24,000 bases of DNA, from the NCBI GenBank assembly GCA_035524675.1, contig DATKOK010000073.1:1-24000 (forward strand), in the 5' to 3' direction. Shown here piece after piece: positions 793 through 23,202 of the stretch. The notes beneath the pieces are model-generated. The model saw only the letters and a list, made by a program, of their open reading frames with translations. It was not told the DNA's origin and did not search any database. This DNA is from Candidatus Methylomirabilota bacterium. GTDB lineage: Archaea; Thermoproteota; Bathyarchaeia; 40CM-2-53-6. Made by a program: the position numbers and the translations under genes. Each line of letters starts with the position of its first letter. The stretch's first letter is position 1.

Positions 793-959
793 CGACAGCG
801 CCTAACTTGGACGAATGACTCTCTAGGGGTTTATTCTGATGACTGGACAATCATCCTGTTGGGGTTTGATAAGATCGCTGTTAAATCCCACGTCGTCGAA
901 TCTATAATGGTGAGAGAACGAGCAGTCCTGCTCTCAATGTTCTGCCCTACCTCCTCATA

Positions 960-1130
960 TTGGGTACACTAGTCCTCCTAGCCAGGTTCATCCTCGGATT
1001 ACACTACACGGGCTCCCGCAAAAGATTCAAAGAGAGCACCGTCATTACCGTTTTCATTATCGTGCTCGTTGCGTTTGCCGTCTTTCTCCTCTTCATGCAT
1101 TGCATCGAGTTAGGGATTTGCCATATCTAG
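960..1130 (+). CDS. Possible unannotated small two-TM membrane protein (56 aa from TTG 960; 62 aa if CTG 942 is used)
   Basis: I translated the frame that opens after TAA 882-884. It reads ..VLPYLLILGTLVLLARFILGLHYTGSRKRFKESTVITVFIIVLVAFAVFLLFMHCIELGICHI*. That is two hydrophobic helices separated by a basic loop (GSRKRFKES). It falls below the 60-aa cutoff of the ORF track. I recognise no homolog, and the start codon is uncertain. Confidence 0.25.
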   Translation: MGTLVLLARFILGLHYTGSRKRFKESTVITVFIIVLVAFAVFLLFMHCIELGICHI

Positions 1131-1147
1131 CCGACTACAGAGTCACA

Positions 1148-1173
1148 TTATAGAACGACTATAGAATATTTAG
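1148..1173 (+). promoter_or_regulatory. Candidate archaeal TATA region for the acd-like/hox transcription unit
   Basis: Tandem A/T boxes TTATAGAA (1148-1155) and CTATAGAATATTTAG (1159-1173) sit 60-85 nt upstream of the ATG at 1233. They lie in an otherwise non-coding 440-bp spacer. This rests on position and composition only. Confidence 0.2.
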
Positions 1174-1232
1174 CAAATCGGCTTAACGACCGCAGAGTCA
1201 AGATTTCCCCGTAAACAAAGGTCGCCGCAATC

Positions 1233-2006
1233 ATGTTGACAGGTTCAATCATTTCGAATGCTCTTGAACAGAAGCGCACTGCTCTGCTCGAGCCGGAGGC
1301 AAAGAACATCTGCAGAGCTTACAATCTTCCTGTCCCCGCATTCAAACTCGCCATCAATGTGAACCAGGCAGTTAAGTACGCTGAGAAGATCGGCTTTCCA
1401 GTTGTCATGAAGATCGTCTCTCCAGACATCCTTCACAAGACAGAGGCAGGCGGTGTCATTCTAGGTCTTCACACGAGAAAAGACGTCGAAAATGGGTTTT
1501 CGAAGCTCTTGTCAAACGCTAAAGCGTTCAAGAAGACCGCCAGGATTCATGGCGTGCTAATTGAACGCATGGCCCCGCCTGGACTCGAGGTTATCGTAGG
1601 CGGCATGCGTGACCAGCAATTCGGACCTGTGGTGATGTTCGGCTTGGGCGGAATATTCACACAAGTGCTCGAGGACGTCACTTTTGGTCTCGTCCCGATA
1701 AAGAAATCCGAAGTCCGCGAGATGATCAGAGGAATCAAAGGATACCAAGCGCTCACAGGATTCAGGGGCATGCTTCCCGTCGACGAAGGAGCCATTGCGT
1801 CGACTGTCGTTCAGGTCTCCAAGATCATGAATGAAAATCAACAGATCGGTCAAATAGACCTTAATCCAGTGAGGGCATACAGTCGCGGCTGTTCAGTGGT
1901 AGATGCACGAATCCTGCTTGCATCCGCGCACGGGACCAAGCGCGAGTTGACCAAGAATGATGGCTCCAGTCCAAGAAAAAAAACAAATTGCTCCACCTAC
2001 CGATGA
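1233..2006 (+). CDS. ATP-grasp protein resembling the beta subunit of ADP-forming acetyl/acyl-CoA synthetase (ACD)
   Basis: The layout is typical of ACD-beta / ATP-grasp_5: LLEPEAKNICRAYNLPVP, FPVVMKIVSPDILHKTEAGGV, VLIERMAPPGLEVIVGGMRDQQFGPVVMFGLGG and IDLNPV..VVDARILL. No alpha (CoA-binding) subunit is adjacent. The 3' tail overlaps hoxE by 50 nt. Confidence 0.75.
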   Translation: MLTGSIISNALEQKRTALLEPEAKNICRAYNLPVPAFKLAINVNQAVKYAEKIGFPVVMKIVSPDILHKTEAGGVILGLHTRKDVENGFSKLLSNAKAFKKTARIHGVLIERMAPPGLEVIVGGMRDQQFGPVVMFGLGGIFTQVLEDVTFGLVPIKKSEVREMIRGIKGYQALTGFRGMLPVDEGAIASTVVQVSKIMNENQQIGQIDLNPVRAYSRGCSVVDARILLASAHGTKRELTKNDGSSPRKKTNCSTYR

Positions 2007-2466
2007 CAAAAGGTGGAAGCTCGTCCAGGCGACGATGCGCCGTCACGGGCACGCTCCCAACTCGCTGATTGAAACGCTGCACACCGTGCAAGAAACCTTC
2101 GGTTTCCTAGAAAAGCGAAGCCTGGAATACGTGTCATTAGCCCTGCGTGTTCCCCTGAGTCGCGTTTACGGAGTTGCCACATTCTACCACTTCTTCACAC
2201 TCAAACCCCCAGGTGAACACGTCTGCGTCGTGTGCATGGGCACGGCTTGTTACATCAGGGGAGCCCAGAAAGTGCTTCAAGATATCGAGCAGACAGCAGG
2301 AACCAAACCGGGGGAAACGTCCCCTAACGGTCGCGTATCACTCGTGACTGCACGTTGCCTCGGATCATGTGGCCTTGCACCAAACGCGGTCTTCGACGGC
2401 GAAGTCGTTGGCAAGCTCACTCCAGCCGAAGCGCACAAACGAGTTGAAGGATGGATGAAGAAATGA
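1957..2466 (+). CDS. hoxE: HoxE, NuoE-like [2Fe-2S] diaphorase subunit of bidirectional [NiFe] hydrogenase
   Basis: NuoE/HoxE family features are present: LIETLHTVQETFGFL, and the Cys ligands CVVCMGTAC and CLGSCGLAP. It is followed directly by hoxF. Confidence 0.85.
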   Translation: MMAPVQEKKQIAPPTDDKRWKLVQATMRRHGHAPNSLIETLHTVQETFGFLEKRSLEYVSLALRVPLSRVYGVATFYHFFTLKPPGEHVCVVCMGTACYIRGAQKVLQDIEQTAGTKPGETSPNGRVSLVTARCLGSCGLAPNAVFDGEVVGKLTPAEAHKRVEGWMKK

Positions 2467-4100
2467 ACGGCGAAGATCTTGCCAAAATAATGGACGAAGA
2501 GAAACGGAACAAAAAATCTCAGCCGCACCAAATACACGTCTGTATCGCAGCAGCATGCTTGTCGGCGCATAGCGAAAGTCTAAAGGAAGATTTCGTCAAG
2601 GAAATCAAACGCCGAGGAATGGATCACCAATGCAAGGTGAAAGGTGTAGGATGTCTCGGCCTATGCGCTCAAGCACCACTCGTCTCAGTAGAGAGTGAAG
2701 GAGTACTCTATCACGATGTCACGCCTCAAAATGTCCCGCAAATTATCGACGGCCTCGGAAGGAAACCCGTGAAAGAAATTCAAGCATCACTCGAAGTACC
2801 ATTCTTCAGCCGACAGCATAGGGTTGTGCTTGACAATTGCGGGAAAGTTGATCCAGAACGAATTGAAGATTACATCAGCCTCGGCGGCTATTCAGCCCTA
2901 CTCAAAGCACTAAATGAGATGCGCCCACCAGAAGTAATCGAGCAAGTCACTCGCAGCGGGCTTCGAGGACGAGGCGGGGCAGGATACCCAACAGGACTCA
3001 AGTGGAGTACTGTCTCCAAAGCAGTTGGAACAAGAAAATTCGTAGTATGCAATGCCGACGAAGGTGACCCTGGAGCCTTCATGGATCGTACCATTCTGGC
3101 CAGCGATCCCCACAAAGTTTTGGAGGGCATGGCAATAGCCGCATATGCAGTCGGCGCATCAGAAGGTTACATTTACGTTCGAGCCGAATACCCGTTAGCC
3201 GTCAAACGACTCAGAACTGCAGTTCATCAGGCAGAACGGTTGAATATACTCGGGAAGAATATTCTCGGCACTCAGTTCAACTTCAGCATAGAAATCCGGC
3301 TCGGTGCAGGCGCCTTTGTCTGCGGAGAAGAAACAGCACTTCTCGCTTCAATCGAAGGAAAAAGAGGAACACCCCGTCCTCGACCACCTTACCCTGCCGA
3401 ATCAGGATTATGGAACAATCCCACTTTGCTCAACAATGTCGAGACATACGCTCATGTTCCACGCATAATCGCAGAAGGCGGGGAATGGTACTCGAAACTT
3501 GGCACAGAGAAGAGCAAGGGCACAAAGATGTTTGCACTCGCAGGACGAGTTACAAACACTGGACTAATTGAAGTACCAATGGGAATCACGCTCCGTGAAA
3601 TAATCTTCGATATAGGAGGCATTCCGGAAGGCCATAAATTCAAAGCAGTGCAGACAGGCGGACCATCCGGAGGATGCGTCCCAGAGCAATACCTTGACAC
3701 TCCAGTCGACTACGAGTCCCTAACAAGACTAGGGTCCATCATGGGATCAGGAGGAATGATCGTGATGGACGAAACATCATGCATGGTCGACGTTGCGAAA
3801 TATTTCATGGACTTCTGCAAGAGCGAATCTTGCGGCAAATGTATTCCATGCCGCGTCGGCACAGCCCAAATGCATGACATCCTGACCAAGATTACGAACG
3901 GAACCGCAACCATGAATGATCTCGCAACACTCGAAGAGTTGTGCGACGTCGTTCAAAACACAAGCCTCTGCGGTCTAGGACAGACAGCTCCCAACTCGAT
4001 CCTTAGCACGTTACGTTACTTCCGAGATGAATACCTCGCACATATACAACGCAGAACATGTCCGGCCGGAGTCTGCAAGCTACAGGAGCCGTCCACCTAA
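2451..4100 (+). CDS. hoxF: HoxF, NuoF-like NAD(H)/FMN/[4Fe-4S] diaphorase subunit with N-terminal thioredoxin-like [2Fe-2S] domain
   Basis: Motifs seen: [24 protein letters not shown], and the 4Fe-4S site [18 protein letters not shown]-terminal Cys motifs are CIAAAC and GCLGLC. The start is either ATG 2451 or the in-frame ATG 2463, which forms an ATGA overlap with the hoxE stop. Confidence 0.9.
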
Positions 4101-4819
4101 TGGCCACGGCAGTTCACGTCAAGACGTTCAAGATTGACGGCATAGACGTCAGTGGTCGCGAGAACGAGACCATCCTACAAGTCGCACAGGAGAACGGAGT
4201 CTTCATCCCCACACTCTGCCAAGTGAATGGACTATCCTCAGTCGGGGCTTGCCGATTGTGCTTAGTTGAAATAAAGGGCAGACCAAAACTTTTCCCCGCA
4301 TGCACGCTCCCAACAGAAGAAGGCATAGAAGTCGTAACGCAATCCGAGCGACTAAGCAAGTACCGCCGCATGATTCTTGAACTATTGTTCTCGGAACGCA
4401 ACCATATCTGTGCAGTATGCGTGTCAAACGGACATTGTGATCTCCAGGACTTAGCGCAGAAACTAGGAATGACTCATGTCCGCTTTCCATACCGTCATCC
4501 ACTCATGTCAGTCGATGCTTCACACAAACAATTCATCATCGACCATAACCGCTGCATTCTGTGCACTCGCTGCGTCCGCGTCTGCGATGAAATTGAAGGA
4601 GCTCACACCTGGGACGTCATGGGACGAGGCATAGACAACCGAGTAATCGTCGACCTAGACCAGCCCTGGGGAACATCAGAAACCTGCACAAATTGTGGCA
4701 AATGCGTACAAGTCTGCCCCACCGGCGCGCTCTTTGAAAAAGGAAACGCAGTTGGAGAAATGAACAAGAGAAGACAGTTCCTGAGTTACCTAACTGTGAT
4801 GCGAGGGGCTGGAACCTGA
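4100..4819 (+). CDS. hoxU: HoxU, NuoG-N-terminal-like Fe-S subunit ([2Fe-2S] plus [4Fe-4S] clusters)
   Basis: The sequence begins [17 protein letters not shown]. Cluster motifs are [19 protein letters not shown] (2Fe-2S), [23 protein letters not shown] and [13 protein letters not shown] prefer ATG 4100 (TAATG overlap with the hoxF stop) over the tracked 4058 start. Confidence 0.9.
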
Positions 4820-5346
4820 AAGCAAGAATCGCGACCGTCTGGCTGGACGGATGTTCCGGATGTCACATGTCCCTCCTTGACATGGACCAACGCCTGCTTG
4901 AACTAGCCGACAAGATTGATCTGGTCTATAGCCCTCTTGTGGATGCAAAAGAGTTCCCCGAGAATGTAGACGTAACGCTCGTCGAAGGATCAATAAGCAA
5001 TGAAGAGAACCTGGAACAGATTCGACGGATACGCGAGAGAACCAAGATTCTAGTCTCACTAGGCGATTGTGCAGTAACGGGAAACGTCCCATCAATGCGA
5101 AACGAATTCCCCGTAGATCAAGTAATCGACGCCGCATACCATATGCACAACAGAACGGATACAAAGTTTCAGTTCGAGGGAGTACCCAAACTCCTGAAGA
5201 CAGTCACACCCGTTCACTCGGCAGTGAAGGTCGACCTCGTCGTGCCTGGGTGTCCACCCTCGGCAGACGTCATCCACTATACCATAACAGAACTCCTGGA
5301 AGGCAGAATCCCAGACCTAACCACACGGACCCGCTTCGGCAAATAA
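4816..5346 (+). CDS. hoxY: HoxY, [NiFe] hydrogenase small subunit (proximal cluster only), apparent CTG start
   Basis: The in-frame sequence upstream of the tracked ATG 4867 reads [17 protein letters not shown]. That is the conserved small-subunit N-terminus and carries two proximal-cluster Cys. Later ligands are GDCAVTG and VPGCPP. There is no ATG/GTG/TTG between the upstream stop (4735-4737) and 4867. CTG 4816 overlaps the hoxU TGA (CTGA), and GAGGGG lies 7 nt upstream. Confidence 0.85.
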
Positions 5347-5358
5347 CGGTGAGAAAGA

Positions 5359-6780
5359 ATGAGAACAATCGAGATCAAGCCTGTAACTCGCATAGAGGGA
5401 CATGCAAGAATCACAATTGAACTCGACGAAGAGGGAAGCGTACACGACGCGCACTTCCATATCACTCAGTTCCGAGGGTTTGAAAAGTTCTGTGAAGGTC
5501 GCCCATTCTATGAAATGCCCTCACTAATGGCCCGAATATGTGGCATCTGCACGATCAGCCACATGCTTGCTTCAGCAAAAGCTTGCGAAGCCTTAATGGC
5601 CGTACGAGTGCCAGAGACAGCAATCAAACTACGCCGTGTCGCCAACTTAGCGCAGATGATCCAGTCGCATGCCCTAAGCTTCTTCTACCTTGCTGCACCA
5701 GACCTACTCCTCGGAATGGACGCAGACCCGGCCCAACGTAACATATACGGGCTCATGAAAACGAACCCACAATTTGTACGCGACGGCGTCCGACTTCGAC
5801 AATTCGGGCAAGAGATAATTGAGCTCCTCGCTGGCAAACGATTACACCCGACATGGATAGTTCCCGGAGGAGTAAACTCACCTCTCACAGTTGAGACCAG
5901 AGACAAAATCCTCGCATCAATTCCTGAAGCATTAGGCATCATACAGCGCACGTTGAACTGGTACAAGACCGTCCTTGACAATTACCGCGAAGAGATTCGC
6001 ACCTTCGCAACCTTCCCGTCCCTATTCATGGGTCTCGTAACTCCGACAGGAGAGCTGGAACATTACCATGGACGCCTGAGAGTCGTTGATCCAACCGGAA
6101 CTATCGTAGAGGACCAAATCGACCCCAAGCTATATCCAAGCTACATCGAGGAAGAAGTACTACCATACTCATATCTCAAGGCCCCCTACTACAAATCGCG
6201 CGGATACCCAGAAGGAATCTACCGCGTAGGACCACTTGCACGCCTCAACATAATAGACCGCACTGGGACACCAAGAGCAGAGGAAGAATGGGTCGAGTAC
6301 AGAGCGCTCAGAAGACAGGCTAACCTAAGCAACTTTCACAACCACTATGCCAGATTGATCGAAATCCTCTACTCCATCGAACGAATTGAACAACACCTAA
6401 ACGACCCTGAAATTACAAGCAGTCACGTCCGAGCATACGCCTCACCTAACAATAACGAAGGCATAGGCGTCACAGAAGCCCCTCGAGGAACATTGATACA
6501 CCATTACAAAATCAACGAAGATGGGCTAGTAAACTGGGCGAACCTCATAGTCGCGACCGGCCACAATAACCTCGCAATGAATCGTGGCGTACTACAAGTC
6601 GCAAAACATTTCGTGACAGGAAACCATCTGCAGGAAGGCATCCTAAACCGCGTGGAAGCAGTTATCAGAACCTTCGACCCCTGTCTAAGTTGCTCAACCC
6701 ACGCAATAGGCCAGATGCCACTTGACATACGTCTCATGGATGCTCAAGGTCGCACGCTAGACCGTCTGAAACGAGATTGA
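5359..6780 (+). CDS. hoxH: HoxH, [NiFe] hydrogenase large (catalytic) subunit
   Basis: RIEGH and RICGICTISH provide the N-terminal CxxC ligands. The C-terminal DPCLSCSTH is followed by a 25-aa tail, which is the expected protease substrate. The gene is partnered with hoxEFUY, the group 3d architecture. Confidence 0.95.
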   Translation: MRTIEIKPVTRIEGHARITIELDEEGSVHDAHFHITQFRGFEKFCEGRPFYEMPSLMARICGICTISHMLASAKACEALMAVRVPETAIKLRRVANLAQMIQSHALSFFYLAAPDLLLGMDADPAQRNIYGLMKTNPQFVRDGVRLRQFGQEIIELLAGKRLHPTWIVPGGVNSPLTVETRDKILASIPEALGIIQRTLNWYKTVLDNYREEIRTFATFPSLFMGLVTPTGELEHYHGRLRVVDPTGTIVEDQIDPKLYPSYIEEEVLPYSYLKAPYYKSRGYPEGIYRVGPLARLNIIDRTGTPRAEEEWVEYRALRRQANLSNFHNHYARLIEILYSIERIEQHLNDPEITSSHVRAYASPNNNEGIGVTEAPRGTLIHHYKINEDGLVNWANLIVATGHNNLAMNRGVLQVAKHFVTGNHLQEGILNRVEAVIRTFDPCLSCSTHAIGQMPLDIRLMDAQGRTLDRLKRD

Positions 6781-7226
6781 ATCAAGTGCACTCCGTGTTA
6801 GTGATAGGATACGGAAATAGTCTACGCGGAGACGACGGAATCGGCATAGCAGCCGCCGAACAGCTCCGTGACACCATACAAAACAGCCGAGTAAGAATCA
6901 TTACATGTCAACAATTAACCCCAGAACTCGCAAACGAGATGAGCAAAGTCGACCGCGTAATAATGATTGACGCCGCCAAAGGAGAAACACCGGGTCAAGT
7001 CACAGTCACGAAAATCGAAACAAGCAATGACTCAGCGACATTCACACATGAACTTCAACCATCCACACTGCTAGCATGCTCACAAGAACTCTACGGGAAA
7101 AATCCCGCAACATACCTTGTATCTGTAACAGGATACTCATTCGACTTTAGTGACGAATTATCGGATGGCGTAACGCTGATCATGCCTCAAGTTCTCACGC
7201 GAATTCGCGAACTCATAGATCAATAA
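6777..7226 (+). CDS. hoxW: HoxW-type hydrogenase maturation endopeptidase
   Basis: The N-terminal VLVIGYGNSLRGDDGIG motif matches HoxW/HybD/HycI proteases. The gene sits immediately 3' of hoxH. The start is TTG 6777 (TTGA overlap with the hoxH stop) or the in-frame GTG 6786. Confidence 0.85.
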   Translation: MNQVHSVLVIGYGNSLRGDDGIGIAAAEQLRDTIQNSRVRIITCQQLTPELANEMSKVDRVIMIDAAKGETPGQVTVTKIETSNDSATFTHELQPSTLLACSQELYGKNPATYLVSVTGYSFDFSDELSDGVTLIMPQVLTRIRELIDQ

Positions 7227-7787: not shown

Positions 7788-8519
7788 GTGGCTTCAAACG
7801 AGAAGGTACAGGGACTCTCAAAAGAGACTTGGCGAAAAGTCATCCAAGCAATCGAAGACTCAATCCCCCTATACGATCACGTGAATGATCTCATATCATT
7901 CGGCAAGGCACAAATGGCAAGAACCTACGCGATTGAAAACTTGAATCTGTACAACGGTTCAATAGTCCTCGATGGCGGGATAGGCCCAGGAACCACTTCC
8001 CGCCTGATACTTACCAAAATCAAACCCAGCATGCTGATTGGATTAGACGGATCAACACGGCAGCTCGAAACTGCCAAGGCGAACCTTAACGAACGCCGCG
8101 AGATGCTACACCTCGTGAATGCCTCATTTGAATACCTACCATTCAGGGAAGATATGTTCGATGCAATCATCACCTGTTATGCATTACGAGATAGCCTCGA
8201 CCTACCAAGATCGATATCAGAGTACGCGAGAATCTGTAAGGAAGATGGGGTATTTGCAGACGTCGACATTGGAAAATCAGATAACACAATCAAACGCGCC
8301 ATGAGCGTCCTATACGTCAAGTACCTCATGCCTCTACTTGCGAAGATGGCAATCCGACATCAGATGAAAACTAACCCCTGGAGAATGATTGCACCAACAT
8401 ACGATTCGTTACCGCCTAATAGTTCATTGCTGGAAATGTTGCAACGCTATTTTCCCAACATTCAAGCGAAAGAATTCCTGAATGGCGGCATCATCGTTAT
8501 AATGAGCCGTAAACGCTGA
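7788..8519 (+). CDS. Class I SAM-dependent methyltransferase, UbiE/MenG (demethylmenaquinone methyltransferase)-like
   Basis: It has the UbiE-type N-terminal signature YDHVNDLISFG and the SAM motif I VLDGGIGPGTTS. Context also supports it: a MenA-like prenyltransferase starts 5 nt downstream. Confidence 0.7.
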   Translation: MASNEKVQGLSKETWRKVIQAIEDSIPLYDHVNDLISFGKAQMARTYAIENLNLYNGSIVLDGGIGPGTTSRLILTKIKPSMLIGLDGSTRQLETAKANLNERREMLHLVNASFEYLPFREDMFDAIITCYALRDSLDLPRSISEYARICKEDGVFADVDIGKSDNTIKRAMSVLYVKYLMPLLAKMAIRHQMKTNPWRMIAPTYDSLPPNSSLLEMLQRYFPNIQAKEFLNGGIIVIMSRKR

Positions 8520-8523
8520 ACTC

Positions 8524-9441
8524 GTGTGGAATGCCTTGTCTTTGGGATTAAGGGTCTGGGTGGGAGAAGCGCTCGAGCCATCTCTCCTCATGAGTTTTCT
8601 ACTTGTAAGCCTGGGCACGGCAGTGGCAGCATACGATGGCTTCTTCAATCTAGCGTTCTATATTCTCGCAATTGTTGGCGTAACCCTGACTCAGAACGCA
8701 GTGAATGTGTTAAACGACTATCACGACTTCAAAACGGGCGTCGACGTCAAAGCACGGAAGACCCCCTTCAGCGGCGGAAGCAAGTTCCTCGTATCGGGAT
8801 TAATCAACCCTCGCAGCGCCCTCCTCTTCGGAATAGCATCATTCTTACTGGCGCTACCAATCGGCGTATACTTCATCCTCCTCCGAGGAGAGGCACTCCT
8901 CGGTATCGGAATCATTGCCGCAGTATCGGTACTCTTCTACACCACGACTTTCGCAAGAATATACCTAGGAGAGTTCTTTGCTGGACTCAACCTTGGACCT
9001 CTCGTAATCATCGGAGCATACTACGTTCAAGCAGCCCGAATTAGTGTCGGAACAATCGCAGTCGGAGTAGCCCCCGGTATCATGATCGCGATGGTTTTGT
9101 ACCTTAACGAAATCCCTGACATTGAGGCAGATGAGAATGCCGGTCGCAAGAATCTGCCGATACTGCTAGGAAGAAAGCGGGCCTCGCAACTCTACGCTGC
9201 TATTGAATGTTTCGCCATAGCGTGGATACTGATTTCAGTATTAACGGGGATGACTCCGGTCGCCACATTGCTTGCTCTCGGATGTCTACCGTTTGCGCTG
9301 AAGTCAATTCGAGGTGCTCTGCGGAGTTACAACAATCTGGAAAAGCTTGTACCTGCACTTGCCGCGAACATTGCCACAGCTTATGTGACACTCACGCTCT
9401 TAGCTGTCGGATATCTACTCCCCATCATTATGCGGTTGTGA
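8524..9441 (+). CDS. UbiA-family polyprenyltransferase, MenA-like (1,4-dihydroxy-2-naphthoate prenyltransferase type)
   Basis: The protein is polytopic and hydrophobic. The first Asp-rich motif is NVLNDYHDFKTGVD. The second is NEIPDIEADENAGRKNLPILLG, which matches the MenA pattern D-x3-D-x3-G-K/R-x-T/N-L. Confidence 0.7.
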   Translation: MWNALSLGLRVWVGEALEPSLLMSFLLVSLGTAVAAYDGFFNLAFYILAIVGVTLTQNAVNVLNDYHDFKTGVDVKARKTPFSGGSKFLVSGLINPRSALLFGIASFLLALPIGVYFILLRGEALLGIGIIAAVSVLFYTTTFARIYLGEFFAGLNLGPLVIIGAYYVQAARISVGTIAVGVAPGIMIAMVLYLNEIPDIEADENAGRKNLPILLGRKRASQLYAAIECFAIAWILISVLTGMTPVATLLALGCLPFALKSIRGALRSYNNLEKLVPALAANIATAYVTLTLLAVGYLLPIIMRL

Positions 9442-10308: not shown

Positions 10309-10545
10309 TTGAGCGAATCATCCAGAGTCGCACAAATAGCTAGAAGAATCGTATTCATGTTTCAATTCTACAAGCAGAATATTGACCCTGACGACGAAGT
10401 TTTTGTCACATTCGTCTCCAATTATCTTGAAAGAAAAAAAGTGAATGTTAAAACGATCTCGTACTATGAGTTGTATACGCACGTCAAAAATGCAATCCGC
10501 GAATACCTGCAAACAGGAGACAGCAAGCCACGAAACGACGCATAA
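10309..10545 (+). CDS. Hypothetical small soluble protein (78 aa from TTG; 62 aa from the internal ATG)
   Basis: The ORF is open, has protein-like composition, is co-directional and packs tightly between the AKR gene and fap7. I recognise no motif. Confidence 0.35.
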   Translation: MSESSRVAQIARRIVFMFQFYKQNIDPDDEVFVTFVSNYLERKKVNVKTISYYELYTHVKNAIREYLQTGDSKPRNDA

Positions 10546-11111
10546 TCGTAATCACCGGAACCCCGGGCACCGGGAAGACCACCTTTGCAAGAAGGCTCGC
10601 ATGCGAGCTGAATGCAGAGTATCTCTCTCTTGGAAATTACATTACGAGGCGGCGACTATTCAGCAGGCTCGATGAGAGGAGAAGCACGAGAGTAGTCGAC
10701 ATGGCTAAAACCCGCCGCCAAGTGCGCAGACTCACCGCCGCCATCAATAATTGTCCCTTAGTAGTGGACACACACCATCCCGAAGGAATCATCCCAAATA
10801 AGATGGCCACAATCGTTTTCGTGCTCAGGTGCAACCCCGTCATCCTCAGACGCCGACTACGACGAAAGAAGTGGAGCAGAAAGAAGATTCGAGAGAATGT
10901 CATGGCCGAGACGCTGGACTCATGTTACATACACGCCGCGTCATACTATGCTATGAAGAAGCTAGTGCAACTGGACACGTCGCATTCGACCCCAGAGCGA
11001 TCCGTAAGAACCGCGAAGAGTATCCTATCAGGAGGTAAAGCACCGATTCTCAAGGTCAATTGGTTACGCAATCTGGAAAGCGACTTGTCACTTTCAAAGC
11101 TCCTCGGGTGA
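10542..11111 (+). CDS. Fap7/AK6-type adenylate kinase-like NTPase (ribosome biogenesis factor), apparent ATA/ATC start
   Basis: The in-frame sequence upstream of the tracked ATG 10701 reads RRIIVITGTPGTGKTTFARRLA, which is beta1 plus the Walker A motif. Downstream, VVDTHH, VFVLRCNPVILRRRLRRKKWSRKKIRENVMAE and VNWL match archaeal Fap7 as I remember it. No ATG/GTG/TTG exists between the stop at 10467-10469 and 10701. Confidence 0.75.
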   Translation: MIVITGTPGTGKTTFARRLACELNAEYLSLGNYITRRRLFSRLDERRSTRVVDMAKTRRQVRRLTAAINNCPLVVDTHHPEGIIPNKMATIVFVLRCNPVILRRRLRRKKWSRKKIRENVMAETLDSCYIHAASYYAMKKLVQLDTSHSTPERSVRTAKSILSGGKAPILKVNWLRNLESDLSLSKLLG

Positions 11112-11852: not shown

Positions 11853-13442
11853 TTGTCGTTCGAAATCCGCAGCAAAGACCTTCTTGGCAGAATAGGTCAA
11901 CTGCGCACAAAACGGGGAACCATTGAAACCCCCTTCCTGCTGCCAGTGATTAACCCTATTTCCCAACTTATTCAAGCCAGAGAGATACGCGATACCTTCA
12001 AGTTTGAAGCAGTCATTACAAACTCGTACCTAGTATGGCGTCGATTCAGAGATAATCCCCCTAAAATTCATGAACTTCTAGGCTTCGACGGCATAGTCGC
12101 GACGGACTCGGGAGCTTATCAGATACTCCAATATGGGGACGTCGAAGTTGACCCAAACGAAATAATCCGATTTCAGGAACAATTAGACAGCGACATTGCC
12201 GTCATCCTCGATATTCCAACCGACCAAACTGCGACTGAACACCGTGCAAAATGGACAGTCGACGAAACGCTCCGCCGTGCCAAGGCAGCCGAACGGGCGA
12301 TCACGCGGCGAGACATGCTGTGGGTCGGACCGGTGCAAGGCGGCGTATATCCCGATCTGGTATCATACTCCGCACGAGAAATGGCCAAGCTGAACTTTCA
12401 GATCCACGCACTTGGAAGCCCAACAACTGTCATGCAGCAATATCACTACGACAAGATGGTGGATATGATAATGGCTGCAAAACTTAACTTGCCTCCGGAT
12501 CGCCCTCTCCACCTATTCGGAGCTGGTCACCCGATGATGTTTGCTCTAGCGGTGGCCCTAGGTTGCGACATTTTCGATTCGGCATCATATGCGCTATTCG
12601 CACGCAACGATCGATACTTGACCCCTCAGGGAACCGCAAAACTGGAGGATCTCGAGTACTTTCCATGCCATTGCGAATCATGCTACAAGCGGAACCCGCC
12701 CCAAGTAAGGAAGATGTTGAAGTTCGAACGAGAACGGTTCTTGGCCGAACACAATTTACGTGCGTGCTACAGCGAACTTCAAACGGTCAAACAAGCAATT
12801 TCGGACGGGCGTTTATGGGAACTGGTAGAAGCAAGAGCGGGCAATCATCCAGCGTTATCAAGAGCCTTCGACACGTTCCTCAAGTACGCACAACACATGG
12901 AATCTGAAACTCCGTTAAGAAAGAAGAAAGGGCCCTTTGTGATATCGGAAAAATCTCTCTCACGCCCAGAAATCATCAGACACCATAGGAAACTGATTAA
13001 AAACTATACTTCACCAACGACCGCGAAACGAGTTATACTCATGCCCGACAAGTACTTGGAGCCGTTCCGCCAGAACTTCAATAACGACACTTCACTGAAG
13101 AAACTCCTTCGTAACCCTCAGATCCATCTGTGTTCTTACAACTTAACCTACGGAATAATACCAAACGAACTAGCCGACGTATATCCACTCTCCCAAACAG
13201 AAGACTCCGTCAAACCTACCGCACCAGTATTGCGCAACACCACGAGAAGAATCGCCGAATGGTTTCGAAGATCAGGTTACAAGTCACGGTTGATCGTCGT
13301 CGAGGATGCATGGCAGCATAAGATAGTAGAATCTCTTAGGAAACAATTGAGAATTCAACTCTTGGAAATCAAACCAGGCGAGGACGCGACCTCCAAACTT
13401 CTCACCGTGATCAGCAGAAAGAAACGTAAACGAACGAGATAA
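11853..13442 (+). CDS. tgtA: Archaeosine tRNA-guanine(15) transglycosylase (ArcTGT)
   Basis: N-terminal FEIRSKDLLGRIGQLRTKRGTIETPFLLPVINP, then DSGAYQ, GSPT, and the Zn site CHCESC followed by LAEHNL. The start is TTG. The C-terminal ~170 aa do not look like a PUA domain to me and end in SRKKRKRTR. Confidence 0.85.
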   Translation: MSFEIRSKDLLGRIGQLRTKRGTIETPFLLPVINPISQLIQAREIRDTFKFEAVITNSYLVWRRFRDNPPKIHELLGFDGIVATDSGAYQILQYGDVEVDPNEIIRFQEQLDSDIAVILDIPTDQTATEHRAKWTVDETLRRAKAAERAITRRDMLWVGPVQGGVYPDLVSYSAREMAKLNFQIHALGSPTTVMQQYHYDKMVDMIMAAKLNLPPDRPLHLFGAGHPMMFALAVALGCDIFDSASYALFARNDRYLTPQGTAKLEDLEYFPCHCESCYKRNPPQVRKMLKFERERFLAEHNLRACYSELQTVKQAISDGRLWELVEARAGNHPALSRAFDTFLKYAQHMESETPLRKKKGPFVISEKSLSRPEIIRHHRKLIKNYTSPTTAKRVILMPDKYLEPFRQNFNNDTSLKKLLRNPQIHLCSYNLTYGIIPNELADVYPLSQTEDSVKPTAPVLRNTTRRIAEWFRRSGYKSRLIVVEDAWQHKIVESLRKQLRIQLLEIKPGEDATSKLLTVISRKKRKRTR

Positions 13443-15096: not shown

Positions 15097-16377
15097 TCAA
15101 GACATAATCCTCCACAAATGGTAAGCATCCTTCAGAAGGTTAAGCTTCGAACGACGTTTGTAAAGTGCTGACTTCATCTCCTTCACATGCTCCTCTTTTG
15201 TTCCATCATCCACGATGTGCCACCTGTACGCCAGTTCGTTGGCGACTTCTGGATAGAGGGTGAAGAAGTGTTGGTTGGTCGAGAAAAACTTCGGGGCGTC
15301 TTTGTATTTTTTCAGGTCCTTCATGACAAAACTTTCCTCAAGCTTCTGTCGGTAGTCTGCGAGTGTTCGTGATGAGAAATCGCCTTTCTTCTTCGCGTCG
15401 ACTGCTGTGTTCCCCGCCAATGTTCCCGACGTCATAGCTAGGTTCGTGCCCTCCCAGTTTATGGCGTTTACAAGCATAGCAGCGTCTCCAACCACGAGCA
15501 TACCGTCCGTGTGGATCTTTGAGACGTAGTCATACCCTCCTTCCGGGATTAGATGAGCTGAATACTCTTTCAGCTCTCCATCTTGAACCAGCGGCGCTAT
15601 CGAAGGATGATTCTTGAATTGCTCGAAGAGAACGTGAGGGCGTTCCCCGCTCTTGTCAAGGTCGCTTAGGCTAATTCCGATTCCTAGCGATATCGTGTCG
15701 CGATTAGTGTACATGAAACCTGCGTGCATTCCACTTCCCCAGCCAACTAGCATGGCTGCCACGCCTTCATCGGGACCAAGGTTGAATCGTTCCTCGATTC
15801 GCTGGCGGGGCAGAGCGATCACCTCTTTCACGGCTAGTACGACTGATTCGGATGGTGATTCCTCACGTAGCCCGGCATGCTTTGCCAGCATCGAATTGAC
15901 TCCGTCTGCAGCGATAACGACGTCGCTAAGCACATCGCCACGGTCAGTCCTTACGCCAACAATTTTGCCCTTCTCCTTTATCACATCCTCAACCGTGGTT
16001 CTGTTCAGTAATACTGCTCCCGCGTCCTCAGCGAGTTTAGCGAACCAAGGGTCGAATTTCGCTCGATGAACGGTGAATGCGTTGAATGTTTTGTTGAATC
16101 GCTGATTTTTATGGCTTAGAAGTACGTGTGATTCTTTCGTTAAAAACCAGTATTGGTACTCGACAACATGCCTCTCGATTGGCGCAGTCTTCCAGAATTC
16201 AGGTGCGAATTGCTCGGTATGGCGTCTGAATATGACTCCTCCAAACATGTTCTTGGAGCCGGGTTTCTCTCCCTTCTCGAGGACAAGGACATTCAGGCCA
16301 GCCTTTGCCATGGTATATGCTGCGGAGGCGCCAGCAGGTCCCGCCCCAACGACCACCGAATCGAACTTCTCCGTCAT
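15097..16377 (-). CDS. fixC: FixC, FAD-dependent ETF:quinone oxidoreductase-like flavoprotein
   Basis: The N-terminal dinucleotide fold is DSVVVGAGPAGASAAYTMAKAGLNVLVLEKG. The ~430-aa length and the position between etf and fixX fit FixC. Its ATG forms an ATGA overlap with the etfBA stop. Confidence 0.9.
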   Translation of the reverse strand: MTEKFDSVVVGAGPAGASAAYTMAKAGLNVLVLEKGEKPGSKNMFGGVIFRRHTEQFAPEFWKTAPIERHVVEYQYWFLTKESHVLLSHKNQRFNKTFNAFTVHRAKFDPWFAKLAEDAGAVLLNRTTVEDVIKEKGKIVGVRTDRGDVLSDVVIAADGVNSMLAKHAGLREESPSESVVLAVKEVIALPRQRIEERFNLGPDEGVAAMLVGWGSGMHAGFMYTNRDTISLGIGISLSDLDKSGERPHVLFEQFKNHPSIAPLVQDGELKEYSAHLIPEGGYDYVSKIHTDGMLVVGDAAMLVNAINWEGTNLAMTSGTLAGNTAVDAKKKGDFSSRTLADYRQKLEESFVMKDLKKYKDAPKFFSTNQHFFTLYPEVANELAYRWHIVDDGTKEEHVKEMKSALYKRRSKLNLLKDAYHLWRIMS

Positions 16378-18260
16378 GATTTCAGCTCTGCTGGTCGAGT
16401 CTTTTCCAACTCTTGGATTAAAGCCGGAACTACCTTGAAGAGGTCGCCGACGACGCCGAAGTCAGCCATCTTGAAAATTGGCGCGTTTGCATCGCGGTTT
16501 ATCGCGGCGATGTAATCTACATTCATTATGCCGACGATGTGTTGTATGGCGCCTGATATGCCTGCTGCAATGTAGATTCTAGGCCTAACGGTTACTCCCG
16601 TCTGACCTACTTGATGGTCGTAGCTGATCCAGCCTGCTCGCACTGCAGCCCGTGATGCGCCCACTTGGCCATGCAGCGCTTTCGCGAGTTCTTCAATCAG
16701 ACCGAAATTACTTGCCGCTCCTAGTCCCCTCCCGCCTGAGACAATGACTTGAGCGTCCTCAAGTCTTACTCCCACCTTTTCGATGGGAACGAAGTCTAGG
16801 ACTTCTGTGTTGAAATCCTCGGGAGTCAGCGACACGTCGACTTTGATTACTTCGCCGCTTCTCGCCGGGTCAGGGGTAAGACTCTTCATGACACGTGGAC
16901 GCACGCTCACCATGGTGGGTCTATGCTTCGGGCAGATTATAGTGGACATGAGGTTCCCACCATAGTCCGGTCTGGTTCCCATGAAGGTGCCAGTTTCAAT
17001 GTCGACGTCGAGAGCCGTGCAGTCGGCAATCAGCCCAGTTCCGATGAGTGTTGCGGCTGATCCTGCCAGGTCCCTTCCTCTAATCGTTCCACCTAGCAAG
17101 AGTGCTTCAGGCTTGAATTCCCTAACGGCCTGAGTGAGTGCGATAGCGTATGGTTGAGTGCGATACTCCTCCAGTCCGGCGTCTTCTACGAGGTAGACCT
17201 TATCCGCCCCATGAGCGAACGCGTCTTTGGTGAGGTGTGAGACGTTGTTGCCAATCGCAACCGCGGCCAATCTAGTGCCATATGTCTTCGCCAGACGTTT
17301 TCCTTCTCCTAACAGTTCCCATGAGACTTGACCAACCTTCCCATGGAGGTGCTCTATCCACACCCAAACGTCTCCGAAACGCGAGGAATTTTCAGAGTAC
17401 GCCGGTTCCGAAGTCTCCGCTTCTTTCCCATCAGTTCTTGCTGGGGCGAATGCGCCTACAGTTATTAGTTTGTGAAGTAGCCATTTTGCTGCTTGGTGAG
17501 CATCGTCACTGCCATTGAAGAGTTCGCCTTGTTTCCTGCCCGGCGGTGGGAACACCTTCTTTACGATAGTCGGGGACCCCTTCAGTCCTAGCTTGTTTGA
17601 TTCCGCGCCTATCGTGTTCTTATCCCAAACCTCGATCTTGGTTCGCTTTGCCTTCAGCATCCCATCGATCGTATACTTTCGCGGTTTGTTTGCCACTTCA
17701 GTAATAGTAAGAACCGCCGGAAGCTTCGCCTTTACCGTCTCGACTCCATCGTCAAATCGATGTTTCGCAACGATGGTTCTGAGGTCCGGATCGACGGTGA
17801 CAATTTCAGTCACGTTCGAGATTATGGGAATGCCAAATCTGACTGCCAATCCAGGCGGAACTTGCCCAGTCTCTCCATCAATCGCAACCCTGCCCGTCAA
17901 GATCAAGTCAAACGGCTTCCTCTCCGCAACCGTTGTTAACGTCCGCCACAGAGTGTATGACGTGGCAAGAGTGTCCGCGCCAGCCATCTCCCTATCCGAG
18001 ACCATAAACGCGTCATCAGCACCCATCGCGAGTGCTTCACGTAATCCCTCCTGGGCTTGAAGCGGCCCCATCGATACCGCGCTTACAGTTCCGCCATGCT
18101 TCTCCTTGATTCGAATTCCCTCTTCTACTGCGTTGAGGCAGCAAGGGTTGACGATAGAGGGAACCCCTTCCCTAATCAGGTTCAGCGTTATGGGGTCGAA
18201 TCGGATGTCTGTAGCGTCCGGGACATGCTTCACGCAAACCACTGTGTGCAACTGATTCAA
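16374..18260 (-). CDS. etfBA: Fused electron-transfer flavoprotein: EtfB (FixA)-like N-terminal half plus EtfA (FixB)-like C-terminal half in one 628-aa ORF
   Basis: Residues ~1-270 look like EtfB: VVCVKHVPD and AIDGETGQVPPGLA. Residues ~297-628 look like EtfA: VWVWIEH.., GGRGL, and PRIYIAAGISGAIQHIVGI..IAAINRDANAPIF. A low-complexity linker (PARTDGKEAETSEPAYSENSS) joins them. The frame is continuous with no internal stop. The start is TTG 18260 or the nearby in-frame TTG/GTG. Confidence 0.9.
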   Translation of the reverse strand: MNQLHTVVCVKHVPDATDIRFDPITLNLIREGVPSIVNPCCLNAVEEGIRIKEKHGGTVSAVSMGPLQAQEGLREALAMGADDAFMVSDREMAGADTLATSYTLWRTLTTVAERKPFDLILTGRVAIDGETGQVPPGLAVRFGIPIISNVTEIVTVDPDLRTIVAKHRFDDGVETVKAKLPAVLTITEVANKPRKYTIDGMLKAKRTKIEVWDKNTIGAESNKLGLKGSPTIVKKVFPPPGRKQGELFNGSDDAHQAAKWLLHKLITVGAFAPARTDGKEAETSEPAYSENSSRFGDVWVWIEHLHGKVGQVSWELLGEGKRLAKTYGTRLAAVAIGNNVSHLTKDAFAHGADKVYLVEDAGLEEYRTQPYAIALTQAVREFKPEALLLGGTIRGRDLAGSAATLIGTGLIADCTALDVDIETGTFMGTRPDYGGNLMSTIICPKHRPTMVSVRPRVMKSLTPDPARSGEVIKVDVSLTPEDFNTEVLDFVPIEKVGVRLEDAQVIVSGGRGLGAASNFGLIEELAKALHGQVGASRAAVRAGWISYDHQVGQTGVTVRPRIYIAAGISGAIQHIVGIMNVDYIAAINRDANAPIFKMADFGVVGDLFKVVPALIQELEKTRPAELKS

Positions 18261-18521: not shown

Positions 18522-18635
18522 AGTGACACAGGTAAGTAGTGTTAATTGAATTAGGTGGTGCTAAACAGTTACAGAGACCGTCAGACTAATCCTGATTAGA
18601 CTACTCGATAGCGATTTCTACTGAACAGATAGTCC

Positions 18636-18642
18636 AAAATAA
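18636..18642 (-). terminator. Oligo-T tract (TTATTTT on the minus strand) just downstream of rps17e
   Basis: It lies 16-22 nt after the rps17e stop. Archaeal termination commonly uses T-rich tracts. This rests on position and composition only. Confidence 0.3.
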
Positions 18643-18657
18643 GCTGAAATGTAGAGT

Positions 18658-18912
18658 CTATTCTTCGACTTCTTCGGGAGCGGGTTCAGAGCCTTCTGCA
18701 GCTACCTGCGTCGCTGCGATTCTCTCTGCTTCGACGACTTTTAGTCTCGTGACGTAGCCTGCTATTCTATTGCGGAGCCGTTTAGATTGTGTTATCACGA
18801 GGTCGTTTACTGCTTGTTTGTCTGATTCAAAGTCGCCTGTAAACCGTTCAGGGTACCGTCTGATGAGTTCACGCGATGTGCGTTTCACGGTGTCCGTTCG
18901 TACTTTGCCCAA
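18658..18912 (-). CDS. rps17e: 30S ribosomal protein S17e
   Basis: GKVRTDTVKRTSRELIRRYPERFTGDFESDKQAV...SKRLRNRIAGYVTRL is the S17e signature. I prefer TTG 18912, which gives MGKVRT. The tracked 18948 start adds 12 non-conserved residues. The acidic C-terminal tail is AAEGSEPAPEEVEE. Confidence 0.85.
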   Translation of the reverse strand: MGKVRTDTVKRTSRELIRRYPERFTGDFESDKQAVNDLVITQSKRLRNRIAGYVTRLKVVEAERIAATQVAAEGSEPAPEEVEE

Positions 18913-18990
18913 ATCTAACCGCTCTATTTCGAAGTACAGCATGAGCAAGTTAGTTTCAACATAAACTTTGCTAACTACCCGAAACGGGGC

Positions 18991-19683: not shown

Positions 19684-19734
19684 TTGTCGATGTGTGAGTA
19701 TACGGATAAAATGGTTTGCATAACCACAACCTTT

Positions 19735-20523: not shown

Positions 20524-20624
20524 ATGATCATCATTATCCGCTCAATTCTCTTTTCAATTAAGCTATTCTAGACTAACTCAGACTTTATTTCCTGAGGAGC
20601 TGAGTCTGCCACTGCTGAGCAATA

Positions 20625-21875
20625 TTGGAAGTACAGATTGGTCAAACAGTCGTCGAACGTTTTCTAAGATACGTGAAGTACGACACACAGTCTGCGGATA
20701 ATGCGACGACCTATCCCAGCACACAGAAACAGAAAGATCTGGGGAGACAGTTGGTCAAGGAGCTGAGCGAGATGGGTCTGAATGATGCGTCAATTGATGA
20801 GTTTGGTTACGTTACGGCAAGCTTACCGGCGAATGTTCAACGAAGTATCCCTACGATAGGATTCATCGCTCACATGGACACTTCACCAGAAGTATCCGGG
20901 AAAGACGTCAACCCACAAATTCATGAGAACTATTCCGGAAATGACATAATTCTCCCTGGCGACAATACGCAAGTCCTTCGTGCTTCAGAGAACTCGGACC
21001 TTGCGAAGAAGATAGGTGACGGGTTAATTACGTCGGACGGAACGACCCTGCTAGGTGCAGATGACAAAGCAGGCGTAGCAGAGATCGTTGACGCAATGCA
21101 CTACCTCGCACATCACCCTGAAATTGAACACGGAATGATCAAAGTCGCCTTTACACCTGACGAGGAGGTAGGTGCAGGGGTAGATCATTTCAACGCGCAA
21201 AGGTTCGATGCTAAGTACGCTTACACTCTAGACGGAGAAACTCTCGGTGAAGTTGAAAACGAAACCTTCTCCGCAGACTCTCTCACGATAACGTTTCGAG
21301 GAGTGCCCTTTCATCCAGGGTACGCGCGGGGACGATTGGTTAACTCCATCAAGGTTGCATCCGCATTTGTGGACAAGCTTCCTAAAGACGGGAACTCGCC
21401 TGAAACTACTGATCGAATGGAAGGATTCGTGCACCCAAACGTCATCCAAGGTGGAGTGGAAAATACGAGCGTCAAATTCATCATCAGAGATTTCGAAGAT
21501 GGCGGACTCAGGAGGAAGGAAGAAGCCCTGAGGGCTCTGGCGGACGAGACTGTTCGAGGCTTTCCAAATTCAAGCTTCACTTTCAAAGTTGACGAGTCCT
21601 ACCGAAACATGCGACACATTCTTGACAAGTATCCACAGGTCGTGGAGAAGGCAATGGATGCTGTGAGAAAGGCCGGGTTGCAACCTAAACTTCACAGTAT
21701 CCGCGGAGGGACAGACGGGGCAAGATTATGCTACATGGGGCTTCCTACACCCAACCTAGCAACCGGCGGACATAACTTCCATTCAAGAGTCGAATGGATC
21801 TCGATTCAGGATATGAAGAAGGCAGTGGAAATAATCGTGAACTTAGTCAAGCTATGGTCGATAGTTACTGCATGA
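20625..21875 (+). CDS. pepT: Peptidase T (M20B tripeptide aminopeptidase)
   Basis: Family motifs: RFLRYVKYDTQS, GFIAHMDTSPE, LLGADDKAGVAEI, FTPDEEVG, GGTDGA and GGHNFHS. The start is TTG. Confidence 0.9.
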   Translation: MEVQIGQTVVERFLRYVKYDTQSADNATTYPSTQKQKDLGRQLVKELSEMGLNDASIDEFGYVTASLPANVQRSIPTIGFIAHMDTSPEVSGKDVNPQIHENYSGNDIILPGDNTQVLRASENSDLAKKIGDGLITSDGTTLLGADDKAGVAEIVDAMHYLAHHPEIEHGMIKVAFTPDEEVGAGVDHFNAQRFDAKYAYTLDGETLGEVENETFSADSLTITFRGVPFHPGYARGRLVNSIKVASAFVDKLPKDGNSPETTDRMEGFVHPNVIQGGVENTSVKFIIRDFEDGGLRRKEEALRALADETVRGFPNSSFTFKVDESYRNMRHILDKYPQVVEKAMDAVRKAGLQPKLHSIRGGTDGARLCYMGLPTPNLATGGHNFHSRVEWISIQDMKKAVEIIVNLVKLWSIVTA

Positions 21876-21880
21876 AAACG

Positions 21881-22300
21881 TCAGGCTTCACTGTGCCGGA
21901 TAGCGTTACCGTGCTGACATTGATTAGGTCGGTTGAGCGCCTTACACATTTCAGCGACGAGGTCAGGATCGAGTAAGTAATCAATTTTCGAGGCTTCTGC
22001 ACAAGAGCGTTTGGAATCAAATCCAAGTTTCGTGTTAAAGTAAGATTCAACGATTCTGTGTTGATGCATTATTGACTCGGCGACGACGACGCCTCTTTTT
22101 GTCAATACTGGTGCCTTCCATGGTTTCTTTGCTACGAGATGTTTTTGTTCGAGCTTATCTAAGATTTCAATCGTTGTAGGCAGCCTCACGTCGAATCTCT
22201 TAGCCAACGTGGAGACTGAAGCGGAGTCGTTTGATTCGCTGAGACGGTACATTGCTTGCAAATACGCTACTTCGGACCTGCTTAATTCAGGGAGCTTCAG
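21881..22300 (-). CDS. DtxR/MntR-family metal-dependent transcriptional regulator (short form, no SH3-like domain), apparent CTG start
   Basis: LSRSEVAYLQAMYRL matches helix 1 of DtxR/MntR, followed by the wHTH VSTLAKRFDVRLPTTIEILDKLEQKHLV. The dimerisation/metal region includes HQHRIVESYF and CQHGNAI. The first canonical start (TTG 22261) falls inside helix 1. CTG 22300 has a perfect GGAGGT 8 nt upstream. Confidence 0.75.
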   Translation of the reverse strand: MKLPELSRSEVAYLQAMYRLSESNDSASVSTLAKRFDVRLPTTIEILDKLEQKHLVAKKPWKAPVLTKRGVVVAESIMHQHRIVESYFNTKLGFDSKRSCAEASKIDYLLDPDLVAEMCKALNRPNQCQHGNAIRHSEA

Positions 22301-22350
22301 ATCACCAGACCTCCAATAGTGTCGAGCGATTGATTTTCATGGTTGCCAAT

Positions 22351-23202
22351 TCACCTGGAATGTGATCCAATCCACTTTGCCACCATCGTAGTGAGAAGTA
22401 ATCCTAGCCCGACCAGCACAATTGTTCCGCCGGGCGCAGCGTGAGGTTGGATTATAGAGACAAGCATCCCCACGATCACCGACAATGATCCGAAGATGGG
22501 TGAGAGTAAGACAGTTTGCTTGAAGGACCGGGCGATTTGCATACTGGTTAACGCCGGAAGCACGAGGAGTGCCGATATGAGCAGGATGCCTACTATTGGG
22601 ATTGAAACGATAACTGTTATTCCGGCGAGTAACGCCAGCAAATAATCAAACCTGCAGGTTACTATCCCTGAAGCTCTAGCCTGGACCTCATCGAAGATCG
22701 TGTAGAGTAATTGCTTGTAAAATGTGAATAATATCAGTACTGTCACTACCAGAACGAACGCGGCGGCGTAGATCTGGTTCCATGTGACAAGCAAGATACT
22801 TCCAAAGAGCAATGCGTCCAGATTGAAACCGTAATTCAGCGTGACGCTCGTAACAAAAATCCCTGTGGCCAGCCCAAGTTCTAGAAAAACTGCCACTGCC
22901 GCGTCGCCGCTGAACCTTGCGGAACGAATAGTCTTCGTGATCATTATGGACCCAAGCACAACTATCGCGCCCCCAATCAAGTATGGGTTGACTCCTGACA
23001 AGCTAGGGATTAGTGCTCCGATGGCAAGTCCTATTGCGATTCCTCCGTAGGCAGTGTGTGCGAGGCCGTCGCCGATGAGGGACAACCTCTTGAGCACAAT
23101 GTACACGCTTAAGATCGAGCTTAGGACTGCTACGATTATTCCTATGATGAAGGCGCGCTGGATGAACCCAGCGTTGAGATATGTGAGGATCGGATTAAGG
23201 AT
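22351..23202 (-). CDS. ABC-3 family metal (Zn/Mn/Fe-type) importer permease, apparent ATC start
   Basis: RLSLIGDGLAHTAYGGIAIG is the family signature, and the protein is polytopic. The in-frame sequence upstream of the tracked GTG 23106 reads LTYLNAGFIQRAFIIGIIVAVLSSILSV, which is the conserved first TM helix. There is no ATG/GTG/TTG between the stop at 23218-23220 and 23106. ATC 23202 or ATC 23190 are the candidate starts. Confidence 0.85.
   Translation of the reverse strand: MLNPILTYLNAGFIQRAFIIGIIVAVLSSILSVYIVLKRLSLIGDGLAHTAYGGIAIGLAIGALIPSLSGVNPYLIGGAIVVLGSIMITKTIRSARFSGDAAVAVFLELGLATGIFVTSVTLNYGFNLDALLFGSILLVTWNQIYAAAFVLVVTVLILFTFYKQLLYTIFDEVQARASGIVTCRFDYLLALLAGITVIVSIPIVGILLISALLVLPALTSMQIARSFKQTVLLSPIFGSLSVIVGMLVSIIQPHAAPGGTIVLVGLGLLLTTMVAKWIGSHSR

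Follow-up and report, generated by a model that had tools for sequence, protein, structure and literature searches.

Where does translation begin in a conserved gene whose reading frame holds no ATG, GTG or TTG ahead of its N-terminal domain? The question is raised by a stretch of 24,000 nucleotides from a Bathyarchaeia genome, that of an uncultured archaeon of peat or soil (GenBank assembly GCA_035524675.1, contig DATKOK010000073.1, positions 1 to 24,000; henceforth the window), in which an earlier note had suspected near-cognate starts in several conserved genes. The orthologue alignments that the note had proposed as a check bear this out, with ATG or TTG at the equivalent codon in relatives, and every codon that it named is present in the window. 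Judging from these sequence comparisons, four conserved genes, two with CTG (HoxY and a DtxR-family regulator) and two with ACG (Fap7 and an ABC transporter permease), most likely begin at these codons where their relatives have ATG or TTG. The genes and their proposed starts are as follows.

4816–5346, + strand: HoxY, [NiFe] hydrogenase small subunit; proposed start CTG 4816–4818
10530–11111, + strand: Fap7/adenylate-kinase-like NTPase; proposed start ACG 10530–10532, Walker A motif GTPGTGKT from 10557
21881–22300, − strand: DtxR/MntR-family regulator; proposed start CTG 22300–22298
22351–23211, − strand: ABC-3 (ZnuB/MntB-type) permease; proposed start ACG 23211–23209

Orthologous start codons

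In the table of stop-to-stop open reading frames (ORFs), none of the four genes has an ATG, GTG or TTG from the in-frame upstream stop to the first canonical codon, the open run being 43 codons in HoxY, 77 in Fap7, 25 in the regulator and 37 in the permease. The lack of a canonical codon over 25–77 codons is by itself not rare, and the real weight of the evidence comes from the exact mapping of orthologous start codons onto the near-cognate codons, not from the mere absence of a canonical one. With residues and codons counted from the in-frame upstream stop, the Pfam matches are to Oxidored_q6 from residue 39 of HoxY (first canonical start at codon 44), AAA_18 from residue 26 of Fap7 (codon 78), Fe_dep_repress from residue 18 of the regulator (codon 26) and ABC-3 from residue 18 of the permease (codon 38). 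Solved homologues align from residues 2–15 of the four proposed products: residues 2–170 of HoxY with 3–173 of 7t2r_E (E=8.7e-47), Fap7 with 4cvn_A from residue 5, residue 3 of the regulator with residue 8 of 2x4h_A, and the permease with 7kyo_C from residue 15. Starts at the canonical codons would remove the CxxC ligands of HoxY, the P-loop of Fap7, the first transmembrane (TM) helix, TM1, of the permease and helix 1 of the DNA-binding domain of the regulator. All four ORFs are intact and under purifying selection, as measured by dN/dS (omega). Public JGI and ENA calls shorten the genes to 159, 136, 251 and 123 amino acids, as the note had expected of standard gene callers. Short length of database protein calls was also tried as a sign of a missing start and was rejected, two HoxY calls of 159 amino acids from other lineages (P0151, P0149) having ATG in the DNA.

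A genome scan with the archaeosine TGT protein of the window led to three Bathyarchaeia metagenome-assembled genomes, two of them (L001 and L003) with 81% amino acid identity and synteny to the window over positions ~1200–21900, the third (L002) with 64% identity. The transporter and regulator genes are absent from the DNA of these three that was compared, and the permease and regulator sites were compared through a separate metagenome scan. Exact-protein look-ups with the truncated permease and regulator products gave no match, and contigs of the same species were found instead through the exact protein of the neighbouring transporter ATPase. For HoxY, the exact truncated product was found on Logan, ENA and JGI contigs.

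At the HoxY start, where the window reads CTG AAA GCA AGA, L001 and L003 have ATG AAA GCA CG. with the same NTGA overlap on the stop of the preceding gene, HoxU. Eight more loci of two other lineages (L057–L064) also have ATG AAA GCA, so that the codon is ATG in all relatives read, and it is CTG in 10/10 same-species contigs read. The protein fits the small subunit of a group 3 [NiFe] hydrogenase (HoxY/MvhG-like) in its Oxidored_q6 domain, its N-terminal CxxC ligands, the adjoining HoxH and the HoxEFU genes upstream; its ORF is intact over 176 codons with an omega of ~0.06 against relatives. The choice of CTG 4816 in the earlier note, made because the cluster ligands would otherwise be lost, thus holds, the CxxC motif lying upstream of the first canonical codon. 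The NCBI annotation of this gene (P0116, 99% identical to the HoxY of the window) gives a protein of 167 amino acids from MDGCSGC, which places the start at another CTG, 4843, and would lose the conserved first strand. The same entry is labelled 'Methylomirabilota bacterium' despite its clearly archaeal (Bathyarchaeia) locus, and the contig is probably mis-binned.

In the permease, ten of the 17 full-length orthologues begin with ATG GAG ACC ATC CTT, and the other seven, the window and six more, have ACG GAG ACC/AGC ATC CTT at the same place. In a neighbour-joining tree ACG occurs in at least four separate clades, interleaved with ATG clades. Within the species of the window, ACG is found in 8/9 contigs that carry the exact ATPase and ATG in the ninth (L048), while L014, a contig 99% identical to the window, combines an ATG permease start with a CTG regulator start; since L048 and L014 carry ATG against ACG in the other same-species contigs, the start of this gene is an ACG/ATG polymorphism segregating within the species. 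The C/T difference leaves the protein of the overlapping ATPase frame unchanged, CAC and CAT both coding for His. All 17 ORFs are intact (283–286 codons), with omega of 0.06–0.09 for nearly all pairs computed and 0.078 inside an ACG-only clade (L017 vs L019). The codons favoured before, ATC 23202 or 23190, were rejected after alignment of orthologue DNA for ACG 23211, which lies three codons before ATC 23202; the earlier observation that no canonical start precedes TM1 stands.

The equivalent codon of the DtxR-family regulator is TTG in eight orthologues, ATG in L018 and CTG in L014 and six same-species contigs, the last being 6/6 of the exact-ATPase contigs that reach the regulator. Both CTG 22300 and the GGAGGT 8 nt upstream of it (22314–22309), as first described, were confirmed. 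The ORF is intact over 138–139 codons, with omega of 0.02–0.04 against the three closest relatives compared and 0.08 against L017. Short upstream ORFs of 2–23 codons (window 22340–22297, − strand) have a TGA that overlaps the regulator start (NTGA) or ends 1 nt before it, an arrangement present in the window and in 8/9 related sequences (L015–L033; absent only in L019). They may represent a coupling or leader-peptide arrangement, or may be a mere consequence of a second codon that begins with A.

In Fap7, an essential gene, ACG persists across deep divergence. The pattern ACG AAA CG. CG. with AGGAG(A/G) 9 nt upstream is found in the window, L001, L003, L041, L042 and L044–46, and, counting only lineages whose DNA was read, ACG is retained in five. 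The start is bounded on its upstream side because in-frame stops lie two codons (L041) and three codons (L001) ahead of the ACG, and in L003 there are no canonical codons at all before the P-loop. Proteins of three related clusters (P0002, P0003, P0009) begin with MKRR/MTRR/MRRR-IIVVTG at the ACG position, so relatives have a canonical start there. The ORFs are intact from ACG (192–193 codons), and omega is 0.14–0.32 across the ACG lineages at dS up to ~1.5. Here too the lack of a canonical start before Walker A was correctly noticed, and here too the proposed codons (ATA 10542 or ATC 10545) were replaced after alignment of orthologue DNA, by ACG 10530, which precedes ATA 10542 by four codons. 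Together, the permease and Fap7 comparisons point to ACG as a start codon in an archaeon, one that would have arisen repeatedly and been kept for long periods.

Ribosome-binding signals and gene overlaps

Shine-Dalgarno (SD)-like motifs stand 7–9 nt upstream of all four near-cognate starts: GAGGGG (4803–4808) for HoxY, AGGAGA (10515–10520, 9 nt) for Fap7, GGAGGT for the regulator and GAAGTGATCA (23224–23215) for the permease. Duplex energies, computed with an assumed archaeal anti-SD, GAUCACCUCCU, and not one read from the 16S of this genome, are −7.2 kcal/mol for HoxY, −7.1 for Fap7, −10.7 for the regulator and −9.8 for the permease. Their mean, −8.7 kcal/mol under the same assumption, compares with −5.4 for 21 canonical starts (one-sided Mann-Whitney p=0.014) and a background of −3.75. 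A Kozak-like context was considered and dropped: a purine is found at −3 and +4 in 4/4 starts, but the −3 purine is also found at ~12/21 canonical starts (by eye).

Three of the four starts also overlap a gene upstream, by 4 nt (HoxY), 16 nt (Fap7) and 17 nt (permease). The upstream genes are:

4100–4819, + strand: HoxU-like gene (Pfam Fer2_4 and NADH-G_4Fe-4S_3); its stop, TGA 4817–4819, overlaps the HoxY start
10309–10545, + strand: a 78-codon ORF (orf10270) ending at TAA 10543–10545; overlaps the Fap7 start
23195–23962, − strand: ABC transporter ATPase (Pfam ABC_tran) with an ATG start; exact protein on 9 contigs

The HoxU/HoxY junction is CTGA, and HoxU is probably the gene to which HoxY is coupled; it is called as 239 amino acids in 8/10 assemblies and as 253 in L011, and is truncated by the end of the contig in L012. 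The ORF ahead of Fap7 is conserved in L001, L002 and L003 and called as a gene of 64–82 amino acids in L041–L046; a search of it against Pfam gave no match. The permease start lies 14 nt upstream of the ATPase stop, and the permease stop in turn is separated by 50 nt, with no overlap, from the start of the regulator.

On this evidence of conserved codons, SD motifs and overlaps, we consider it likely that the four genes are translated by SD-guided, partly coupled initiation in which initiator tRNA accepts near-cognate codons. SD pairing 7–9 nt upstream would place the small ribosomal subunit, and ribosomes on the overlapping upstream gene would also supply subunits to the starts of HoxY, Fap7 and the permease. 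The initiator Met-tRNA (anticodon CAU) would then pair with a single mismatch, at codon position 1 for CUG and position 2 for ACG, and the outcome would be a Met-initiated, full-length protein, probably made at reduced efficiency. Termination-reinitiation, which couples overlapping gene pairs in archaea (PMC10666635), is the route that the earlier note had offered as one explanation; it suits the 4-nt overlap of HoxY, is less clean for Fap7 and the permease and does not apply to the regulator as a partner of the permease.

A start census of 25 window genes, made through orthologue alignments, gave ATG 9, TTG 9, GTG 3, CTG 2 and ACG 2, with TTG at 11853, 13746, 18251, 18912, 20625, 7316, 9447, 15100 and 10309, an unusually TTG-rich usage. 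The TTG start is conserved across relatives for TGT, DHS, ETF, S17e and the M20 peptidase, and several others stand where relatives have ATG (AKR, FixX). The replacement of ATG by TTG speaks for drift, or for tolerance of change, at the start codon, and a TTG as common as ATG suggests that the identity of the start codon is weakly discriminated or weakly selected. A generally relaxed start-codon check in the lineage (through, for example, a changed aIF1, aIF2 or initiator tRNA; aIF, archaeal initiation factor), under which CUG and ACG would be regular starts for about a tenth of the genes beside frequent UUG, is a tentative extension that we regard as rather doubtful. The equal use of TTG and ATG keeps this suggestion of the earlier note plausible; against it, L001 and L003 have a single near-cognate start, that of Fap7, among the orthologous starts compared. 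If true, the lineage would be a natural case of eukaryote-like non-AUG initiation in archaea, in which the ACG/ATG polymorphism could be used to measure fitness cost. Discrimination against non-AUG codons in archaea is the task of aIF1 (PMC6237735, PMC4705826), and in Haloferax ~30% of the alternative initiation sites mapped with harringtonine were near-cognate, but these were set aside (PMC7261190). A literature search on start-codon usage in Bathyarchaeia found no paper.

Alternative explanations and known systems

Several observations weigh against initiation by initiator tRNA at the proposed codons. The scarcity of near-cognate starts in L001 and L003 just mentioned bears on it too, and the apparent rate of 4 in 25 may be a local cluster. 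The CTG codons of HoxY and the regulator are limited to one species, in which constraint after the codon change is inseparable from earlier constraint. The comparison of SD strength depends on the anti-SD assumed. In Fap7 and the permease the start is 13–14 nt upstream of the stop of the upstream gene, and overlaps longer than the −4/−1 nt class are reported to have a lower reinitiation efficiency (Huber et al., PMC10666635), which counts against both. In the Fap7 orthologue of L043 (ERZ25039515 contig_88158), the codon that corresponds to the start, ~75 nt upstream of the gene as called, is TCG, and only ATA ATA stands before the P-loop; TCG being two mismatches from AUG, another codon (ATA) or something else must serve there.

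Every site is one substitution away from a canonical start, as would be expected if consensus, assembly or sequencing errors had turned ATG or TTG into CTG or ACG in this one assembly. Such an origin can practically be dismissed: the same codons are present in 6–10 independent assemblies from Logan, ENA and JGI (ten at HoxY, nine at the permease apart from the ATG allele of L048, and six at the regulator), contigs spanning the permease and regulator sites differ from the window by 0–11 other single-nucleotide polymorphisms, and ACG recurs in other species at the permease and Fap7. Consensus error, which the earlier note had listed among the findings that could overturn its proposal, is thereby excluded at HoxY, the permease and the regulator. 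The starts might instead be truly lost, leaving silent or decaying pseudogenes or only truncated, non-functional products from the downstream canonical codon. The changes in HoxY and the regulator are indeed recent and species-specific, and the ACG/ATG polymorphism of the permease could be a mildly deleterious allele; with full-length ORFs at omega of 0.02–0.3, constraint that persists within the ACG-only permease clade, a Fap7 ACG kept across deep divergence, and downstream starts that would cost the proteins their CxxC ligands, P-loop, TM1 or helix 1, this reading is nonetheless unlikely.

C-to-U editing of the mRNA, restoring ACG to AUG and CUG to UUG as in plant organelles, appears very unlikely. 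T-to-C transitions are the commonest mutations, in eukaryotic studies CUG and ACG initiate comparatively well for non-AUG codons under eIF1/eIF2-type machinery (eukaryotic initiation factors), and we know of no mRNA editing system in archaea. What speaks for editing is that a single C-to-U change would make all four codons canonical, and likewise the TCG of Fap7 in L043, and that the creation of start AUG from ACG is documented in plant organelles (e.g. PMC12548569). Position would favour yet another route, in which programmed frameshifting or read-through joins the downstream protein to the product of the upstream ORF and no start codon is needed, three of the four starts lying inside or at the end of such an ORF. 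At these codons the relatives have ordinary ATG or TTG starts with SD motifs, which marks separate initiation as ancestral; no slippery heptamer was seen by eye at the junctions, and the regulator is 50 nt away from the permease stop, which together make fusion highly improbable.

The preferred reading, SD-guided and partly coupled initiation at CTG and ACG, has parallels in bacteria, where near-cognate starts include the AUU of infC and pcnB in E. coli, and NCBI translation table 11 permits CTG, ATT, ATC and ATA as starts. There, as proposed for the window, initiator tRNA accepts a codon with one mismatch that follows an SD, efficiency is low compared with ATG, and such starts escape standard gene callers. 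The window differs in coming from an archaeon with aIF1/aIF2-type initiation, in using ACG, which is not in table 11, and in showing four cases in 24 kb, a recurrent origin and a within-species ACG/ATG polymorphism. Initiation has been measured for all 64 codons (Hecht et al. 2017, cited in PMC10666635). The pairs known to be coupled by termination-reinitiation in archaea and bacteria (PMC10666635) are matched by HoxU/HoxY, whose products belong to one complex and whose genes overlap by the classic 4 nt (NTGA), and by ATPase/permease and orf10270/Fap7, which are overlapping and unidirectional. Unlike those pairs, the restart codon here would be CTG or ACG and not ATG or GTG, two of the overlaps, at 16–17 nt, belong to a class of reportedly lower efficiency, and the regulator is not overlapped by the permease. 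The two codons are the same, CUG and ACG, as in eukaryotic non-AUG initiation, where they act in good context and are policed by eIF1, and archaeal aIF1, aIF1A and aIF2 are homologous to the eukaryotic factors (PMC4705826, PMC6237735). Placement here would, however, be by SD or coupling and not by scanning, and the codons would be the sole starts of housekeeping genes, not starts of isoforms or upstream ORFs.

There are practical consequences for the annotation of uncultured archaea. Public data misannotate all four genes, NCBI using a different CTG for HoxY. As a consequence, a hydrogenase subunit, an NTPase of ribosome biogenesis, a metal regulator and one subunit of a transporter would look defective in metabolic reconstructions of Bathyarchaeia. 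The natural ACG/ATG alleles, in turn, make the strictness of archaeal start selection testable.

Other genes of the window

By Pfam, the window carries a HoxEFUYH-type [NiFe] hydrogenase operon, archaeal housekeeping genes (Fap7, Lsm, archaeosine TGT, deoxyhypusine synthase, S17e), a FixABCX-like set and a ZnuABC-type transporter followed by the DtxR-family regulator; tRNA and Rfam scans of the window gave no match. Two further starts in the hydrogenase operon are ambiguous. HoxF (window 2451–2465) has ATG 2451 where L001 and L003 have CTG, and an ATG 3–4 codons downstream is common to all three, so the second ATG may be the start. The ORF after HoxH, hydrogenase maturation protease-like (window 6777–6786), has a TTG on the HoxH stop (TTGA) where L001 and L003 have CTGA, and a conserved GTG three codons downstream leaves the codon used ambiguous.

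A fifth candidate for a near-cognate start is a small ORF:

885–1130, + strand: two-TM ORF, stop TAG 1128–1130; candidate starts ATC 885, ATC 900, ACG 918, CTG 942 and TTG 957

Its only homologue, P0115 (58% identity, E 1.6e-16), starts at a TTG 13 codons upstream of the equivalent of CTG 942, where the window has TAT, and the residues GERT and LPYLLI are conserved upstream of the in-frame TTG 957.

In the FixABCX-like set, the electron-transfer flavoprotein (ETF) is a single beta-alpha fusion (window 16374–18260, − strand) of 625–628 amino acids, depending on the TTG chosen, with two ETF domains and ETF_alpha, and the FixC- and FixX-like genes follow downstream with ATGA and 4-nt overlaps. 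A UbiA prenyltransferase gene (window 8506–9441) is missing at the syntenic place in L001 and seemingly partly kept in L003.

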